Virus genome (UHGV): UHGV-1709118
DNA: 61,628 nucleotides
From: a virus
Direction: 5' to 3' (one strand)
In this document: piece after piece, positions 2,355-41,498 of the stretch
How the letters are laid out: every line of letters starts with the position of its first letter
How positions within the stretch are numbered: position 1 is the first letter of the stretch
Translations under genes and position numbers: made by a program
Notes under the pieces: generated by a model
The model's database searches: none
Told to the model about the DNA's origin: nothing
Seen by the model: the letters and a program-made list of their open reading frames with translations, nothing else

Positions 2355-3013
2355 TGTATTTATTAATCAATAGAGAAAATATAGTAGTCGATATCCTCAC
2401 GGAAATCCGCTACATCAAATTACAATCCAACCCAAGTATTGTCATTGCTTGCTCGGAAGGTGAAGCTACAGGGGTAATAGGCTCAGATTGCAATAGCCAT
2501 TTCATTTTGGCTAATTCAGATATGACAGGTTCTATTGATGCAGTAAGAATTTTATCTTTTGATGGTAATATTCCAGAAGATTATGAACCTAATTTTTATA
2601 AATATGATAATGAAAAAAATGAATTAACATATTACTATTCTTTAGAAGAATACCAAAAAATGAAACAAGAAGAAAATAAAAAAGCTTTCGCTAATTTCCT
2701 TGTTAATCATCCTTTAACTTGGATTGATGGAAAGCAATATGGAGTTACAGAAGAAGACCAGGCAGAAATTAGCCTAAATATGAACCAATATTCTATGGCA
2801 ATTCAAGCTGGAGCCGAGAATCCTAGATTAGAATGGCATGCTCGCCAAGAAGAATGTACATCTTGGACAGTTGAAAATTTGACTGCTTTAACTTTAGCTA
2901 TTTCTGATTTTGTTTATCCTTATTATAGAAAAATGCAACAATATAAAACACAAATTTATACTGCTAAAAATTATAAGGAAATTAAAGCCATAGAATTAAA
3001 ATATGAAAATTAA
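2354..3013 (+). CDS. hypothetical protein, translationally coupled to RT (TAATG overlap)
   Basis: 219-aa ORF; ATG 2354 overlaps RT stop 2352-2354. Confidence 0.5.
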   Translation: MYLLINRENIVVDILTEIRYIKLQSNPSIVIACSEGEATGVIGSDCNSHFILANSDMTGSIDAVRILSFDGNIPEDYEPNFYKYDNEKNELTYYYSLEEYQKMKQEENKKAFANFLVNHPLTWIDGKQYGVTEEDQAEISLNMNQYSMAIQAGAENPRLEWHARQEECTSWTVENLTALTLAISDFVYPYYRKMQQYKTQIYTAKNYKEIKAIELKYEN

Positions 3014-3440
3014 TTCTTTTTTTAAAAATTCTATATTATTTTTGATTGGCGGAAGTATTTACTGGTTAATTGAATTTGTTTACAAAACATATATAAATTC
3101 AGGAAATACTCATTGGTCAATGTTTATCTTAGGCGGTTTATCTTTTTTAATTTTAGGTAGCTTAAATGAAAATATTCCTTGGAATTGGTCTTTATTAGCT
3201 CAAGGATTAATTGGAACCGCAATTATAACAAGTTTAGAATTTTTATTTGGATATATTTTAAACATTCAATTACAACTTAATATTTGGGATTATTCACATT
3301 TACCTTTTAATTATAAAGGACAAATATGTTTATCTTTTAGTTGTCTTTGGTTTATTCTAGGTCTAATAGGAATTATTTTAGATGATTTTCTTAGATGGAA
3401 AATCTTTGATGAAGAAAAACCTTATTATCATATTATATAA
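3003..3440 (+). CDS. small integral membrane protein (about 4 predicted TM helices)
   Basis: 145-aa ORF with four hydrophobic segments; overlaps previous gene by 11 nt. Confidence 0.5.
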   Translation: MKINSFFKNSILFLIGGSIYWLIEFVYKTYINSGNTHWSMFILGGLSFLILGSLNENIPWNWSLLAQGLIGTAIITSLEFLFGYILNIQLQLNIWDYSHLPFNYKGQICLSFSCLWFILGLIGIILDDFLRWKIFDEEKPYYHII

Positions 3441-3451
3441 AACAAAAAAAT

Positions 3452-3476
3452 GGGTAAGAGCATTTAGCTCTTACCC
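3452..3476. terminator. bidirectional rho-independent terminator between convergent DGR operon and tail operon
   Basis: gggtaagagc-attta-gctcttaccc with A-run upstream and T-run downstream. Confidence 0.65.
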
Positions 3477-3488
3477 ATTTTATTTTTA

Positions 3489-4091
3489 TTAACAATTATC
3501 TACGATAATAATGCCTATGCTATCAGTAGGTTTTTCTTTTATCTCAAAAGTAACTCCAAAGCCAGGAGTAGCAGTAGCCTTTTCAATTTTAGAATATTCT
3601 TCTAAATTACTGGTATAAGTAATAATTGGCGGAACCGTACCATCAGCACCACATTTCAAAGTTTCAATTAAATAAGACATTTTATAAACTTCTCCATCTA
3701 ATGTCCAAGCTCCTACGGACAATGTAGCAGGATAAGCCTTAGAAGTGACCTTATCAGTAGCAGTTTTAATATTATCACTTACTTCTGTTTTACTATAAAC
3801 ATCTAAATTGGTTCTTGCTTCAGCCGCAGTTTTACCACCAGTGCCACCATGTTCTATATCAATAATATCAGAATTTAAAACCAATTCTTCTGGATCAATT
3901 TCTATTTCAACTGTTCCAGCCGCATTAAATTTCCGAAGTTTCTCTGCATATCCCGCATTTAGTTTATGTCTAGCATTATTAAAATCGACATACATACAAT
4001 CATTTTCTTCTAGGATATAAGCATAAGACTCTTTGACTGCGACTTGGTTCATTTCAGCTTCTGTTCCATAAAAAACTTTAAATAAAGCCAT
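3489..4091 (-). CDS. tail-fibre-associated protein (last gene of tail operon)
   Basis: 200-aa ORF at distal end of minus-strand structural operon. Confidence 0.4.
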   Translation of the reverse strand: MALFKVFYGTEAEMNQVAVKESYAYILEENDCMYVDFNNARHKLNAGYAEKLRKFNAAGTVEIEIDPEELVLNSDIIDIEHGGTGGKTAAEARTNLDVYSKTEVSDNIKTATDKVTSKAYPATLSVGAWTLDGEVYKMSYLIETLKCGADGTVPPIITYTSNLEEYSKIEKATATPGFGVTFEIKEKPTDSIGIIIVDNC

Positions 4092-35320: not shown

Positions 35321-36943
35321 TTAATTCATAGCTGCTCTATTGGCTATTGTTTTATCACTTTTCTGTTCATCTGCTTTTTCAGGTCTGCCAGCTCCAGTTT
35401 CTTGCTGTTGTTGTATTTTAGCCTGAGCATTATTATTATCTTTATTATTATTATTAAGGTTTTTACTACTCATAGTAGAACTCATCATAGGAGGAATCAT
35501 AATATCAGAAAGCTTCAATATATCATTCTCAAACTGAATAGAAGCTAAAATACTTGATTGAGAATGTCCTAAAGCAATTTGCGGTAACATTTTTGAATAA
35601 CCAATTTGAGTTTGTTCTTTATACATTTTGGACAAATCTTTATAATTATAAATAGTTGTCTCTAAAATGCAAACTTTAAAATTATAAGAATTTTTATTAA
35701 ACTTTTTAACAATTCTATTTAAAAGATTTTGATATTGATAAATCAAATCTCTCATTACTGCTTCATCATTGGCTATTGATTTTTCCAAAGATAAATTACC
35801 ATCTGTATTAAATAGATTTTGAGACACACCCAAATTATTATAAACAGTACGTTCAACTTTTTCTAAATCATCAGTTTTAGTTGTACTATTAGAATCTTGC
35901 ATATCTGCAACATCAATATCAGCAAAAGTAGTAAGAACATCCACTCCCACTGCCCGACGAAGCATCGCAACCGCATTATTATGTATATCTTTTGCTTCAT
36001 CAACGTCAAAAATTAAATCACCATTTTTATCTAATGGTAATTTTTGAATAACAATTTTTAATAATTGCTGCATAGTTTTTTTTCTATCTAATTCTTGCGC
36101 CTGGTCTAAATCTATAATTGAAGGAATTGCTCCTACCAACATAGGAAAATCATTATCGCCTAAATTAAATTTTACAGTACAATCTGGGTCTAACATTGCC
36201 CAACCCATTGAATCTCCAGGATAATCACCTTTAAGTCTATTTTCTTCATAATCTACATAAGCTTTTTGAATTTCTTTAGGAAACATTTTTAAAACTTTTA
36301 TTCTATACTGCGGATCAGTAAAATAAACATTAAAAAAACTCATATGCAATTCAACAACAGGATCAATACCTCTATTAAATCTACTGCGGCAATACTTTGC
36401 AGGTAACTGTTGTATACTAAATTTATCATTAAATTCTAAAATATAACCATAATAAGAACCACATTTAATTACTTCTAATGCAATATTTCCAAAAAGACGT
36501 TTAATATCAGAATTATCTAAATAATCTAAAGCTTTCATAAAATCATTTAATACTTTTTTTGATTCTTTAGCTCGATTATTATTAACAAAAGAAGTAGTAA
36601 CAAACCAATCATATTTATACAATAGAGCTAAATATTTACACATTCTTTGATAAATACCGCTAGCCTCATAAAAATATTTAGAAACTTCTCTTAAAGTTTC
36701 ATAATCATGTTTATCAATAGCATTAAGAATAAAAGCCTTATCGCCATAATTGCGGTTTACTTTTCTATAAATACCTAAGTTCATTACCGCATCATCTAAA
36801 GTTTTTAAGCCTACTCGAATTTTTGAAAAATCTTCCGGCACACTATCTTTTCCAAATTGAGCTTCATATTCTGATTTAGTAATAGGATTTCCGCGTAGCA
36901 TATTAAAACCTTTATTTTTAATTTCTACTTGTCTATCTCGCAT
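35321..36943 (-). CDS. portal protein candidate
   Basis: 540-aa ORF immediately downstream of terminase/endonuclease. Confidence 0.6.
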   Translation of the reverse strand: MRDRQVEIKNKGFNMLRGNPITKSEYEAQFGKDSVPEDFSKIRVGLKTLDDAVMNLGIYRKVNRNYGDKAFILNAIDKHDYETLREVSKYFYEASGIYQRMCKYLALLYKYDWFVTTSFVNNNRAKESKKVLNDFMKALDYLDNSDIKRLFGNIALEVIKCGSYYGYILEFNDKFSIQQLPAKYCRSRFNRGIDPVVELHMSFFNVYFTDPQYRIKVLKMFPKEIQKAYVDYEENRLKGDYPGDSMGWAMLDPDCTVKFNLGDNDFPMLVGAIPSIIDLDQAQELDRKKTMQQLLKIVIQKLPLDKNGDLIFDVDEAKDIHNNAVAMLRRAVGVDVLTTFADIDVADMQDSNSTTKTDDLEKVERTVYNNLGVSQNLFNTDGNLSLEKSIANDEAVMRDLIYQYQNLLNRIVKKFNKNSYNFKVCILETTIYNYKDLSKMYKEQTQIGYSKMLPQIALGHSQSSILASIQFENDILKLSDIMIPPMMSSTMSSKNLNNNNKDNNNAQAKIQQQQETGAGRPEKADEQKSDKTIANRAAMN

Positions 36944-36962
36944 TTAAATAATTCACCTCCTA

Positions 36963-37331
36963 TTAATATCCAGCTTTTTTCATAATATAATCATAACTGA
37001 TTAAATTTTCTTCGGTATAGGGAATTTCTATCAAATTTATATTTTTTAATGCACAAAATCTACGCTTTTGCTTATCATTATAATTCTGTTGATGTAATCC
37101 TCTACTACCACCAAATTTACTAACTGGCATGTAATGCTGTTTTCCTTGATATTCAATTAAAAAATCTAAATTATCATCATCATCAAAAACAGCAAAATCA
37201 AATCTAAGAGGTCTTCCATTTGAACTTGCTAAACCAGGAAACTCATATTCTTCTTTAAAATTAAGATTATTATTTCTTAAAATTTCTTCAATTTTAATTT
37301 CTGCTCTTGAAGCCCTCATTATTTTCACCAC
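36963..37331 (-). CDS. small endonuclease-like protein (possible homing endonuclease)
   Basis: 122-aa ORF with R-F-D-F ... L-I-E-Y-Q-G-K-Q-H motif reminiscent of PD-(D/E)xK / Vsr-type nucleases, inserted between terminase and portal. Confidence 0.35.
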   Translation of the reverse strand: MVKIMRASRAEIKIEEILRNNNLNFKEEYEFPGLASSNGRPLRFDFAVFDDDDNLDFLIEYQGKQHYMPVSKFGGSRGLHQQNYNDKQKRRFCALKNINLIEIPYTEENLISYDYIMKKAGY

Positions 37332-37340
37332 CTTTTAAAT

Positions 37341-37371
37341 TTATGAACTAAGAGTTTTTACTCTTAGTTCA
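37341..37371 (-). terminator. hairpin between terminase and endonuclease genes
   Basis: atgaactaagagt-tttt-actcttagttcat 13-bp stem. Confidence 0.4.
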
Positions 37372-39109
37372 TAAACATCAAATCTGCTACCTTAAAATGT
37401 TTGCGCTTACGTCTATTATCTTCCTCTTGTTTAATGTAATATAAACCATATTCTAAAGAAGATACTTTATCTTTTTTAATTTTTCTATTTACTTGTTTGA
37501 GAATAATATTAACACCTTCGTTTTCTTCTCGAAGGTTAGTTAGCTCTTCTTTAAGTATGGAAGTTAGACTAAATGGAATAACATATTTTGACCTTTCTCG
37601 TGGAGTCATACCTTGGCCCAATTTAGTTTCCATTAATTTCATCATTGCTTCACGTTCATCAAGTAAAAATTTTACTTTACCAGCATTTAATTGTGTTTGC
37701 AAATTAGCATGAGCTTCAGTATTAATTGTAGCATTTGCTTTAATTAAATACATTGCTTCATCTTCTGTATCATCAGTTCTAAATTTTTTATAATAATTTT
37801 CTTCATCATTATAAACACCAAAAGGTGGATAATATTCACCTGTTTTATCATCTTCTTGGACTTTTATCATATAATCAATAAGTCCAATACCTAAGCCATT
37901 CGCGTCTATTACCAAACGTTTTGCTTTATATTTATAATATAATTTTTTCAACATAATAGCTTGATTTTCAAAATGCTCATCTTCCATAGTTACTATATTA
38001 ACTAAGGATTTAATGGATGGGCCTTGTGGTTGCGGAATGACCTTTAAAATGCAAGCAACTGTATCGCAACCTTTACGTCCAACGTCTACAGAAACTACAT
38101 AATAAGAAGAAGCAGATGATCTTCCAGAATATTCATATTCTGGTTTTTGAATTTTTCTGTTTCTATCAAAAACCTCACTGTTAAAGAAAGCATCTTCAAC
38201 TGTTCCACTCCAGATCGACTCGTACTCTCGACCAAAGGAAGCTTCATTAAAAGTAGGGTCACGCTTTAAATTAATTAAGAAATCAGAATCTAATAATCCG
38301 ACTAACACAGGTATACGCCAAGAACCACCCATAACAATACTTTGCCCTGGATCAACCACCATACGTACTAACAAAGTAATAAGTTTTTCATAGGGAAATG
38401 TATTCTTCCAACCGGCTGTTGTAACGTATATCTGCGACTTATTTAAGGATTCTTCGGGGTGGACAGAACCATCCATACATCTACGTGAAACGTTCATTGT
38501 AGGGATTATCACTTCATTTAGTATAGTTCCATCTACACCAACGCATTCCTCAACTAGTCCGCCATGTCTACGTTTACCACGTGAACTTTCTTTAGCCGCT
38601 ACAATATCAAAATAACTACCACTTTTAAATTTATATATACAATAATCTTTACTAATTTGAGTTTGTCCTCTTCCCCAATCAATTTCTTTTTTAAAAGCTG
38701 GTACAAGTTTACATATTTCTTCTACCTTTTCTTTCACAATTGTAGCTGCCTGCTCTTTACCACCGGAAGTAACAAACAACTTTGCACCAGGGTAAAGTAC
38801 ACAACGACACATTAAAACCAGAATCGAAAGAAAAGATTTACTGTACGCTCGAGGAAAGGTCATGTATACATATTTATAACGCATCGCAGCTCTAAGAAAG
38901 ACCCGCTGATAGTAGTAAAATTCTAGTTGTTTTTTACGAGAACTATCTCCTCCGTCCTGTAAAAAATCCACAAATAAATCTGGATATTCTCGCCAAAAAG
39001 AAATATATTGACGAGCAACAGGTAAAATAGCTCTTATTCTCTCTTCTGAAATACCTATTTTTTTTCTATTATTAGATAATTCTAATAATTGTTGTAATGC
39101 CATTATCAT
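37364..39109 (-). CDS. terminase large subunit
   Basis: 581-aa ORF; Walker-A-like PRAYSKSF, nuclease-like VSVDVGRKG and LVIDANGLG segments; sits before portal. Confidence 0.7.
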   Translation of the reverse strand: MIMALQQLLELSNNRKKIGISEERIRAILPVARQYISFWREYPDLFVDFLQDGGDSSRKKQLEFYYYQRVFLRAAMRYKYVYMTFPRAYSKSFLSILVLMCRCVLYPGAKLFVTSGGKEQAATIVKEKVEEICKLVPAFKKEIDWGRGQTQISKDYCIYKFKSGSYFDIVAAKESSRGKRRHGGLVEECVGVDGTILNEVIIPTMNVSRRCMDGSVHPEESLNKSQIYVTTAGWKNTFPYEKLITLLVRMVVDPGQSIVMGGSWRIPVLVGLLDSDFLINLKRDPTFNEASFGREYESIWSGTVEDAFFNSEVFDRNRKIQKPEYEYSGRSSASSYYVVSVDVGRKGCDTVACILKVIPQPQGPSIKSLVNIVTMEDEHFENQAIMLKKLYYKYKAKRLVIDANGLGIGLIDYMIKVQEDDKTGEYYPPFGVYNDEENYYKKFRTDDTEDEAMYLIKANATINTEAHANLQTQLNAGKVKFLLDEREAMMKLMETKLGQGMTPRERSKYVIPFSLTSILKEELTNLREENEGVNIILKQVNRKIKKDKVSSLEYGLYYIKQEEDNRRKRKHFKVADLMFMN

Positions 39110-40301
39110 TCTCCCCTCTCAAGAGAAGCATAAAAAGCATCATCCTCTTCTTGTTGTTTTTGTTCCATTTTCTTAAATTCTAAATAATCTTCATCTTTAA
39201 TAGGTTCAGCTTCATCTTTGAATAATTGTTTTTCAAAAGTTTCTTCTGAATCTACTTCATCTGTATTTGCTAATGCTTCTCTTTCTTTATCTCTTTGAAT
39301 TTCTTTCATAGAAGCTTCAATCATATTACCCAAATTAGTCTCTTCCAAAACTAAACGTCTTGTATAATTTTGAATATCTTCTAATGTTCTATCAACTTTA
39401 TCTTTTGGTTGATCTACATAATATTTAGGAATAAAACCATCTTTTTCACAAATACTAACTAACTCACCGATTGAATCAATAAATTCTCCATCTGCTTCTT
39501 TATTCTGAGCAGCAGTAAAACGACCACTCTTCATAAGTGAATCATATACTTTAGATATTTTTTGAAATCCTTCAACGTCATTAACATCAATAAGTTGATT
39601 AGCTTTCAAAGATGCTTTACAAATCATAATAAGAGTATCTTTATGACCAGCACTTTGAATATCATAAGAAGCCATCATATCTTCATACAACTGTTCCATT
39701 TTAATCCATTCTTCTGGTCTATAACCCTTACCCCATTTTAATCGCAAATAAGTTTTATCTTCTTCAGTAAGTTTATCAGAAAAGTCATCCTCTTCTTCGG
39801 GAAAATCAGAAGAAGAAATATCAGCGTTTTTAGAATCTAAAATTCGTGTAAGATCCGGTTTATCTGGTCGATGATCTACTTTAAGTTCTTTTTCAATCTC
39901 TTCTCCTGACAAACCAGCAGCTTGCATTATTTTAATTTTTTCTTGCCGATTTTCTTCTTGAAGTCTTTCTGTATCTTCCCAATGGTAACTTTTCCATTGC
40001 TTTAATTTCATTTTAGAAAGATAGCGCCCAAGAATAGTAGTGCCTGTAAGTTTTTTGGGGTCTGCACTATATTTTTCTAATACTTTATTCCACTCATCTT
40101 CTATATATGGTACATCAATTTCTTGTAAAATCCACTTGAAAGTTTCTGGATCCCAATTATCTACATGCATAGTGAGACATTTTTTACATTGTCTCATCAC
40201 ACCGCCATTAGGATATTTTTCAAGATTTTTAGACAAATAAAACTGATTAACTGACATGGTGCGACCACATTTTTCGCAATAAGCTGTTTCTCCCGCCATA
40301 A
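39106..40301 (-). CDS. Zn-ribbon protein, possible terminase small subunit
   Basis: N-terminal CxxC...CxxC, acidic C-terminus; start placed at MAGETAY with RBS (track ORF extends to 40410). Confidence 0.35.
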
Positions 40302-40303
40302 CT

Positions 40304-41350
40304 TTAACCTCTTTTCTTATTTCTACAACATTTACATATACTGTACCAACCATCTTTACTTGTTTTATTTTTTGAAAAGAAATCATTATGGGCTGGTTTA
40401 AGTTGACCACATTTTGAACATTTTTTTAAAGGTTTATTTAAAAGTTTATATTGCCAAAAAATAAAATCTTCTTTAGCAGCTTGCGCTATTAACTTAGGAA
40501 TTTTATTCCGCCATAAACTAGAAATATATTCCAAACTATGTTTAATACCAAATTCTGTTTGTAATAATTGCTGAATTTCAATATTCTGCTTTCCATCAAT
40601 TTTATATTCAACTAATCTTTCATATAAGGGAAAATTAGCTAAAGCTAACTCACTAATTTCGTCAAAAGACTGAATTAAGTACCAAGTATCTCCTTCAAAA
40701 TTATCATAACTATCTTGTTTTAATCGTGAATAGTTACATAAAATCGCAGAACATATTTCAGGGTTCATTAATGAAACTCCACTAATATGTACTTCTCCAT
40801 CTTCATCAATAGTAGAATTATCTTCCAATTTAATAAAACCACTTAATGAACGAGTTAATTTATTAAAAATAATTGGACGTTGATATGCTTGTTTTATTAT
40901 ATATTGGTCTTTCCGCATATCTATTAAAGCCTTTTTCATAATATACGCATCTCTACCTGAAGTGCGTTTAAGGACGGCATCCCAATCATTAATTGTATTT
41001 CTTAATTGTTGCAAATAAGGTATATTTTCTAAATCTTTTTTAGTAATTGAAATTTTAGGTTGAAAAATTGTATTTTTATTTTCAGAAATTAAATTATAAA
41101 TGCCGTCTTCGCCATTTTCTAACTGGCTGACAAGACCCTCAAAAGAAGTTTCACGTTTATTAACTGTAGTTAAACGATTTTCTGTTAAAATTTTCTTTTC
41201 TTTTTTCTCTTGCTTTTCCATACAAAGAATTAAATAATCCGCAAGCACTTCTAAATAAGAAGAATTTAGATCAGGGTTTTCTGCGATTATTTTTTCAACT
41301 AATTCTTTACGCTCTTCAGGAGATTCTAATGTATAATCTAATTTAATCAT
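40304..41350 (-). CDS. hypothetical protein with C-terminal Zn-ribbon (first gene of late operon)
   Basis: 348-aa ORF ending CSKCG...CKCC. Confidence 0.35.
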   Translation of the reverse strand: MIKLDYTLESPEERKELVEKIIAENPDLNSSYLEVLADYLILCMEKQEKKEKKILTENRLTTVNKRETSFEGLVSQLENGEDGIYNLISENKNTIFQPKISITKKDLENIPYLQQLRNTINDWDAVLKRTSGRDAYIMKKALIDMRKDQYIIKQAYQRPIIFNKLTRSLSGFIKLEDNSTIDEDGEVHISGVSLMNPEICSAILCNYSRLKQDSYDNFEGDTWYLIQSFDEISELALANFPLYERLVEYKIDGKQNIEIQQLLQTEFGIKHSLEYISSLWRNKIPKLIAQAAKEDFIFWQYKLLNKPLKKCSKCGQLKPAHNDFFSKNKTSKDGWYSICKCCRNKKRG

Positions 41351-41384: not shown

Positions 41385-41414
41385 ATTATACTACATCGCA
41401 ACTACAAAAGTCAA
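41385..41414 (-). promoter_or_regulatory. sigma70-like promoter for minus-strand morphogenesis operon
   Basis: on minus strand TTGACT, 18-bp spacer, TATAAT. Confidence 0.4.
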
Positions 41415-41454
41415 AAAATTTTTAGATATATTAATTAAAAATAAAAAAAAATTT

Positions 41455-41485
41455 TAATAAAACTCGCCTTTGGCGAGTTTTATTA
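41455..41485. promoter_or_regulatory. 14-bp-arm palindrome between divergent promoters
   Basis: taataaaactcgcc-ttt-ggcgagttttatta. Confidence 0.45.
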
Positions 41486-41498
41486 AAAGTAATTATTT

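Follow-up and report, generated by a model that had tools for sequence, protein, structure and literature searches.

A stand-alone Vsr-like nuclease core at the terminase–portal junction of gut and rumen phages is probably fixed, vertically inherited, and derived from a homing-endonuclease family

When a small nuclease gene is found amid conserved phage genes, it is usually given the label "homing endonuclease" and written off as selfish. Does this label fit the gene that lies between the terminase and portal genes of virus genome UHGV-1709118, whose 61,628 nucleotides were analysed here as a whole and are referred to as the window? A preliminary description, made from the sequence alone, had proposed a selfish homing endonuclease insertion. 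Our analysis points to a different answer: the gene probably encodes a fixed, vertically inherited, and selected nuclease that derives from a homing-endonuclease family and is not currently mobile.

The ORF list of the window contains a minus-strand ORF of 122 aa at 36963..37331 if GTG is taken as the start codon, and the segments R-F-D-F and L-I-E-Y-Q-G-K-Q-H quoted in the preliminary description are present. All homologues start at the equivalent of an internal ATG at 37319, with orthologues of 118–119 aa. A Shine-Dalgarno sequence read from the window, AAGGTGG (37328..37334, minus strand), is located 8 nt upstream of this ATG, and the GTG start codon falls within it. Based on the homologue starts and the position of the Shine-Dalgarno sequence, the real product is most likely a 118-aa protein encoded by 36963..37319 (minus strand, stop codon at 36963-36965) rather than one of 122 aa, while the four additional codons of the GTG-started reading (37320..37331, minus strand) are probably untranslated. 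Homologues comprise 3067 database sequences, and 13,576 clusters at 50% identity match at E ≤ 1e-3 in an exhaustive HMMER search; judged from these numbers, the ORF is far beyond chance. Anomalous base composition was rejected, as the GC content of 26.3% is unremarkable beside the portal (28.0%) and terminase (32.9%) genes. No paralogues were found within the window.

The gene is indeed flanked as first described. Its upstream neighbor encodes a large terminase subunit of YonF/SPbeta type (37364..39109, minus strand, 581 aa; tblastn to annotated terminases), and its downstream neighbor a portal protein of YonE type (35321..36943, minus strand, 540 aa; phrog_2739, E 1.7e-82). The portal ATG follows 19 nt past the stop codon of the nuclease ORF and is preceded by AGGAGGTG. 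Among 40 non-redundant relatives, the spacer leading from the terminase stop via the Shine-Dalgarno sequence to the ORF start measures 12–30 nt in most, with AGGAGG-like sites at the same place, directly past the terminase stop codon. Neighbor annotation in three further contigs yields the gene order YonG_N - TerL - ORF - portal - YonD_N - YonB. Moreover, no separate promoter or terminator for the nuclease ORF stands out in a promoter and terminator scan of the window. Farther upstream, a terminator-like bidirectional hairpin with a 17-bp stem (41452-41488) is followed by a sigma-70-like promoter (11/12) at 41414-41385 on the minus strand, a pair (41385-41488) with which the operon for packaging and morphogenesis may begin. 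Zinc-ribbon motifs of the form CxxC...CxxC are encoded by both genes that precede the terminase (39106-40410 and 40304-41350, minus strand): a 434-aa protein has its motif at the N-terminus, a 348-aa protein at the C-terminus. The 434-aa protein matches phrog_3314, takes the YonG_N position of the relatives, overlaps the terminase start by 4 nt, and is a candidate small-terminase or DNA-recognition subunit.

The obvious rival explanation is an active free-standing homing endonuclease, which would cut ORF-less terminase–portal junctions and be copied in by recombinational repair. Free-standing genes for Vsr-like and GIY-YIG endonucleases commonly have an RNA hairpin shortly before the start codon (PMC2677866), and the presence of such a hairpin in the window speaks for active homing. 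The hairpin noted earlier at 37341-37371 is real and larger than described: it spans ~37339-37376 (minus strand) with a perfect 17-bp stem and a 4-nt loop, reaches −24.9 kcal/mol (z −6.9 versus shuffles), and overlaps the terminase stop codon (37364-37366). However, it is absent from most of the 40 non-redundant relatives, and this lack of conservation counts against active homing, as do the operon spacing and the lack of a promoter of the ORF's own. Since the hairpin has no T-run, is not called by the terminator scan, and is missing from relatives, it was rejected as a conserved regulatory element or terminator; it is real but lineage-specific.

Which kind of nuclease the ORF encodes is answered by profiles and structure rather than by direct sequence matches. 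Searching Pfam, NCBIfam, PADLOC, and PDB by sequence or profile did not produce a usable match; at E ≤ 10, Pfam returned only an unrelated 13.7-bit match and no Vsr (PF03852). Megablast of the region against GenBank phages found no match, and neither Pfam nor PHROGs gave an HNH family match for the nuclease domain itself. The profile search proposed in the preliminary description was nevertheless informative in PHROGs, where the ORF matches homing endonuclease and intron-encoded nuclease families with E-values of 5e-29 to 2e-18, the matched part of these longer profiles being confined to an internal or C-terminal stretch. The family placement comes from PHROGs and structure comparison. An AlphaFold2 model computed from an alignment of 50 orthologues (pLDDT 95.7) matches Vsr endonuclease best (1cw0, score 10.7), followed by the catalytic domain of I-Bth0305I (3r3p, 10.0; 21% identity, 92/98 residues aligned), Vsr-like RAP domains (7.4–9.8), the DUF559-like protein 3hrl (8.9), and Hjc (6.3). 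According to this model, the protein has a Vsr-type PD-(D/E)xK fold, which bears out the earlier suspicion of such a core. Viral structure matches of the model are mostly larger proteins, annotated among other things as restriction enzyme, DUF2726, homing endonuclease, and "group I intron-associated VSR homing endonuclease". The window protein itself gives no match to DUF2726 (PF10881, gathering threshold 24.7 bits), while several orthologues of 75–79% identity carry precomputed PF10881 matches and multi-domain relatives score 18–27 bits.

E7, D41, E56, G59, Q61, H62, D82, and K85 are invariant in the 118-aa orthologues, with Q58 conserved to at least 90%; across stand-alone and multi-domain relatives together, D41, E56, G59, Q61, H62, G71, D82, and K85 are invariant. 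E7, D41, Q58, H62, and D82 occur in the same order as the I-Bth0305I motif E170, D196, N208, H213, and D222 and reside on helix 1, strand 2, the end of strand 3, the following turn, and helix 2, elements that correspond to those bearing the motif in I-Bth0305I (PMC3239194). Mapped in this way, by order and secondary-structure position and without residue-level superposition, the protein contains the composite motif E...D...x...H...D of the EDxHD family. It is thus described as an EDxHD-type, DUF2726-related nuclease core and predicted to be a Mg2+-dependent DNA endonuclease with E7, D41, E56/Q58, H62, D82, and K85 as candidate catalytic residues, probably acting as a homodimer like the isolated catalytic domain of I-Bth0305I (PMC3239194).

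Although Vsr is the best structural match, a function as a Vsr-type T:G mismatch repair endonuclease or an Hjc-type Holliday-junction resolvase is very improbable. Sequence identity to E. coli Vsr (PDB 1CW0) is 13%, and the Pfam Vsr match as well as a repair context are missing. With a single Cys (C89) and no Trp, the protein has neither the zinc-binding cluster nor the intercalating aromatic (Trp) residues of Vsr. The canonical E-x-K lysine of Hjc is Gln or Asn here, giving an E-x-Q/N motif, and the structural match to Hjc is much weaker than those to Vsr and I-Bth0305I. Further, the sequence relatives are homing-type proteins and not repair enzymes.

By sequence, the closest of these relatives are phage proteins that combine zinc ribbons with a DUF2726-like domain (phrog_9084, phrog_559, phrog_7140) and are annotated as 'intron-encoded protein' or 'homing endonuclease'. 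Their nuclease domain is 40–50% identical to the window protein and shares its invariant residues, and some copies are found within split terminase genes of Staphylococcus phages. Many of the HMMER clusters are of this kind, 230–510-aa proteins with a C-terminal nuclease domain and N-terminal parts of 120–320 aa made of CapR/DUF4379 treble-clef zinc-ribbon repeats, while others are stand-alone proteins of about 115–135 aa. In Staphylococcus phage SPJ2, a 320-aa homologue occurs within a split terminase gene as an intron-encoded protein. Together with the PHROG matches and the intron VSR annotations, this homologue confirms that homing endonucleases make use of the domain family. In contrast to the 230–510-aa proteins with their DNA-binding repeats, the window gene encodes the bare domain, and while the former occur in scattered contexts, often in several copies per genome, the latter is single-copy and strictly syntenic. 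The same holds in comparison with the EDxHD/Vsr-like homing endonucleases (I-Bth0305I, PDB 3R3P; PMC2677866, PMC3239194): the window protein agrees in fold and motif, with sequence similarity to I-Bth0305I below HMMER detection, but lacks the N-terminal DNA-binding region (NUMOD/HTH or zinc-ribbon repeats), as the nuclease core fills all 118 aa, and its gene resides outside any intron, intein, or fractured gene. For active homing, this evidence cuts both ways. The nuclease family is common to intron-encoded and free-standing homing endonucleases, and since the specificity of I-Bth0305I is mainly set by central bases beside the cleavage site (PMC3239194), site-specific cleavage by a catalytic core alone is conceivable in principle. 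On the other hand, a DNA-binding module is missing, unlike in all multi-domain relatives.

Is the gene then distributed like a mobile element? The preliminary description had suggested looking for relatives in which terminase and portal genes are adjacent. Such phages exist among the outgroups, namely Geobacillus virus E3 (terminase–portal gap of 30 nt), Alicyclobacillus phage KKP_3916, Brevibacillus phage Sundance, and Lactococcus phage P1048, and none was found within the clade. The empty junction in outgroup phages implies that the nuclease ORF was inserted at some point; it favors active homing, as does a site between two conserved essential genes. At the same position, the ORF is found in the human-gut contig MT836163, in Enterococcus phages H1, EF1, EF5, and VRE9, and in phAss-1. 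All 78 IMG/VR loci with downstream DNA contain it (80 loci in total, terminases 62–75% identical to that of the window). In a second locus set, ranked by similarity to the E3 terminase, it is present in every locus with a terminase at least 55% identical to the window's and missing from all E3-like loci and three deep branches. Moreover, contigs from bacterial and archaeal genomes and MAGs were searched with the ORF itself as query, which keeps the outcome free of context bias. At a tblastn identity of at least 55%, all hits are stand-alone frames adjoining terminase and/or portal, whichever the contig reaches; below 52%, frames comprise 144–753 aa (most above 250 aa), and none adjoins terminase or portal.

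In total, the ORF is present in 148 of the 159 distinct loci. The 11 loci without it (L003, L004, L006, L089–L094, L103, and L150) are all E3-like or deep-branching, and carriers are monophyletic on a neighbor-joining tree of the terminase with a bootstrap of 77 (L103 and L150 are outside this tree). Inside the clade, the ORF is conserved at this position in 148 of 148 loci, an outcome that the preliminary description had named as speaking against its own proposal; homology to structural proteins, named alongside, is not seen, and the ORF belongs to a nuclease family instead. Active homing is weakened by this lack of presence/absence polymorphism at any sampled depth. Neither of the signatures of mobility, sporadic presence or residence in an intron or intein, is observed, with empty sites confined to the outgroup clade. 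In the scenario we favor, a Vsr-like core would have been gained a single time at the terminase–portal junction, by the common ancestor of a large clade of ~130–160-kb SPbeta-module phages of gut and rumen Bacillota that includes H1/EF1/VRE9 and phAss-1. Since then, it would have passed down by vertical descent, placed centrally in a compact late operon of terminase - nuclease - portal.

The mode of evolution agrees with vertical descent. Averaged over 58 non-redundant loci, protein p-distances are 0.251 (ORF), 0.254 (terminase), and 0.404 (portal); the nuclease ORF is conserved as strongly as the terminase and more strongly than the portal. Its distances follow those of its neighbors as tightly as the neighbors follow each other (Mantel r of 0.93 for ORF–terminase, 0.92 for ORF–portal, and 0.91 for terminase–portal), which argues against active homing. 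So does the median dN/dS of 0.11 (Nei–Gojobori) across saturated synonymous divergence (dS is saturated in half of the pairs), suggesting that the gene has been kept under strong purifying selection since its gain, although such selection could also be compatible with a fixed homing endonuclease still meeting naive genomes. Finally, sliding-window nucleotide identity reveals no tract of elevated identity centered on the ORF, whose identity of 70–87% equals that of conserved terminase segments.

Some pairs of loci show an ORF distance far below the terminase distance, e.g., 0.059 versus 0.226 for L075/L011. These pairs would fit a fixed weapon in phage competition, which does not spread within the clade but cleaves co-infecting related phages with unprotected alleles, with interference competition and a skewed inheritance of the packaging module as the outcome. 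However, the nucleotide identity of these pairs is not raised, indicating constraint rather than transfer, and recent homing between lineages was rejected for the same reason. As synonymous sites are saturated, no target site or protected polymorphism was identified for such a weapon.

Genuinely mobile elements are visible at this very locus. Insertions of more than 300 nt interrupt 13 of 139 complete terminase genes; they are sporadic, and some contain GIY-YIG or HNH genes. Examples are a 264-aa GIY-YIG endonuclease gene (L188:932-1987), an HNH gene annotated as phage intron in EF1 (L007:4085-5848), and an insert without any ORF of at least 80 aa that may be an ORF-less intron (L197:729-1697). 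With these three and 10 other loci, the terminase gene of the clade is a hot spot for sporadic insertions. Sporadic insertions of the nuclease ORF would consequently have been detected, and the contrast between the sporadic HNH and GIY-YIG elements and the ever-present ORF again disfavors active homing. L167 has two additional genes between the terminase and the 118-aa ORF (2618-3813), one of the HNH_3 type (287 aa) and one encoding 73 aa; this looks like a genuine sporadic homing-type insertion beside a fixed gene. In one sublineage, ~1.5 kb separate terminase and ORF (L048:5735-7152; also L049, L050, and L107–L109). This insert encodes a 144-aa protein, HAD-phosphatase-like by eye, and a 117-aa cytidylyltransferase-like protein with an HxGH motif, and may be a moron. 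Some lineages have acquired other genes on one or the other flank of the ORF, which shows that it need not directly adjoin terminase or portal and counts against our preferred explanation. Apparent long portal frames, seen at some loci, were not interpreted as inteins, since they may be an artefact of reading TAG as Gln. A single frameshift occurs in 3 of ~43 MAG-derived ORF copies (L212:3001-3361, L215:2137-2500, and L218:3001-3340), all in the MT836163-like subclade. The halves on both sides of the frameshift have stayed conserved, and its cause may be an assembly error or else early decay (recent pseudogenisation), which would count against the preferred explanation.

Taken together, the presence in every clade locus, the neighbor-tracking distances, and the lack of a co-conversion-like tract and of a DNA-binding module do not support a currently mobile element, and active homing is an unlikely explanation of the locus. 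Of the initial proposal, a historical insertion, made once and visible in the empty outgroup junctions, holds, but current mobility does not, given the complete presence in the clade, the co-divergence, and the dN/dS of ~0.11. Unlike the sporadic EDxHD homing endonucleases, the window gene is fixed and inherited vertically.

When would the nuclease be made? Many relatives, indeed most of those in L008–L253, read TAG as Gln (code 15). The ORF contains in-frame TAG codons in 65 of 83 loci, where the window has Gln, in many cases at the invariant Q61. If these codons are translated as Gln, every copy of the ORF is intact at 118–119 aa, except for a 123-aa frame in phAss-1 (L005). Full-length nuclease in many relatives would hence depend on TAG-to-Gln suppression. 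The ORF contains 1.14 in-frame TAG per 100 codons, the terminase 0.84, and the portal 0.86. As in-frame TAG codons mark late genes in recoded phages (PMC10607447), this density suggests that the nuclease is expressed late, alongside the packaging proteins. In the window, no in-frame TAG is found in terminase, ORF, or portal (35321-39109), no tRNA gene was found in the 61.6 kb, and 1 of 41 long frames ends in TAG.

Vertical inheritance under constraint suggests that the nuclease is retained for a benefit to the phage. Our tentative preference is for a putative role in DNA processing coupled to packaging, in which the enzyme would cut or debranch replicated DNA for the terminase–portal motor. 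This possibility, which remains well short of probable, is favored by where the gene lies, when it would be expressed, and how strongly it is constrained, to the same degree as the terminase. Functionally, such a role would be analogous to that of the HNH accessory nucleases of HK97-like phages (see also PMC3592412). Kala and colleagues are said to have described in 2014 that an HNH accessory nuclease of the HK97 gp74 type takes part in phage packaging. Like the window protein, nucleases of the gp74 type are small, belong to a homing-endonuclease family, and are conserved beside terminase and portal, a placement within the terminase–portal module that the window gene shows in 148 distinct loci. 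In both HK97-type phages and the window clade, the terminase retains its own nuclease domain. The two differ in fold (beta-beta-alpha-Me HNH versus Vsr-like PD-(D/E)xK) and in position, as the HK97 HNH gene is located upstream of the small terminase subunit and the window gene between large terminase and portal; moreover, the packaging role is demonstrated for the HK97 enzyme, whereas we infer it for the window nuclease.

A stronger version of this proposal, in which the nuclease is an integral accessory part of the SPbeta-type (YonG/YonF/YonE) packaging machine of the clade, is rather doubtful. Here, a homing endonuclease would have lost its DNA-binding domain and been recruited to cleave or debranch DNA concatemers alongside terminase and portal, as a PD-(D/E)xK counterpart of the HK97 HNH–terminase partnership. 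The terminase itself counts against a packaging explanation. Its nuclease-domain motifs are intact in the window, and D342, H379, D402, D412, and K546-D547 are invariant in an alignment of phages with and without the ORF, leaving nothing obvious to complement. Accordingly, compensation by the ORF for a degenerate terminase nuclease was rejected. The next most likely role after packaging would be the cleavage of co-infecting relatives without a protected allele, as in the competition weapon introduced above. Such a weapon would account for purifying selection after fixation and is compatible with a homing-endonuclease ancestry and with late expression alongside packaging. The absence of a DNA-binding domain speaks against it, however, and we consider it doubtful as well.

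A literature search that included the phAss-1 paper found nothing on the nuclease ORF, and GenBank already labels the orthologues of Enterococcus phage VRE9 "homing endonuclease". What is new is the combination of a stand-alone core that is fixed at the center of the terminase–portal operon in a large clade of phages from gut and rumen. Thus, the bare catalytic core of a homing family behaves as a core gene in widespread and abundant phages. If it is retained for packaging or for phage–phage competition, this would be a second, independent co-option of a homing-nuclease family into phage morphogenesis. The preferred reading of a selected nuclease is directly testable, because an orthologue occurs in cultivable Enterococcus phages (H1_75 in H1/EF1). 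Contigs of 120–160 kb with the phage module (L174–L212) have been assigned to MAGs of very different taxa, among them Lachnospiraceae, Bacilli, Prevotella, Treponema, and Methanobrevibacter, which suggests that they are whole phage genomes mis-binned into MAGs; their real hosts are probably gut or rumen Bacillota.
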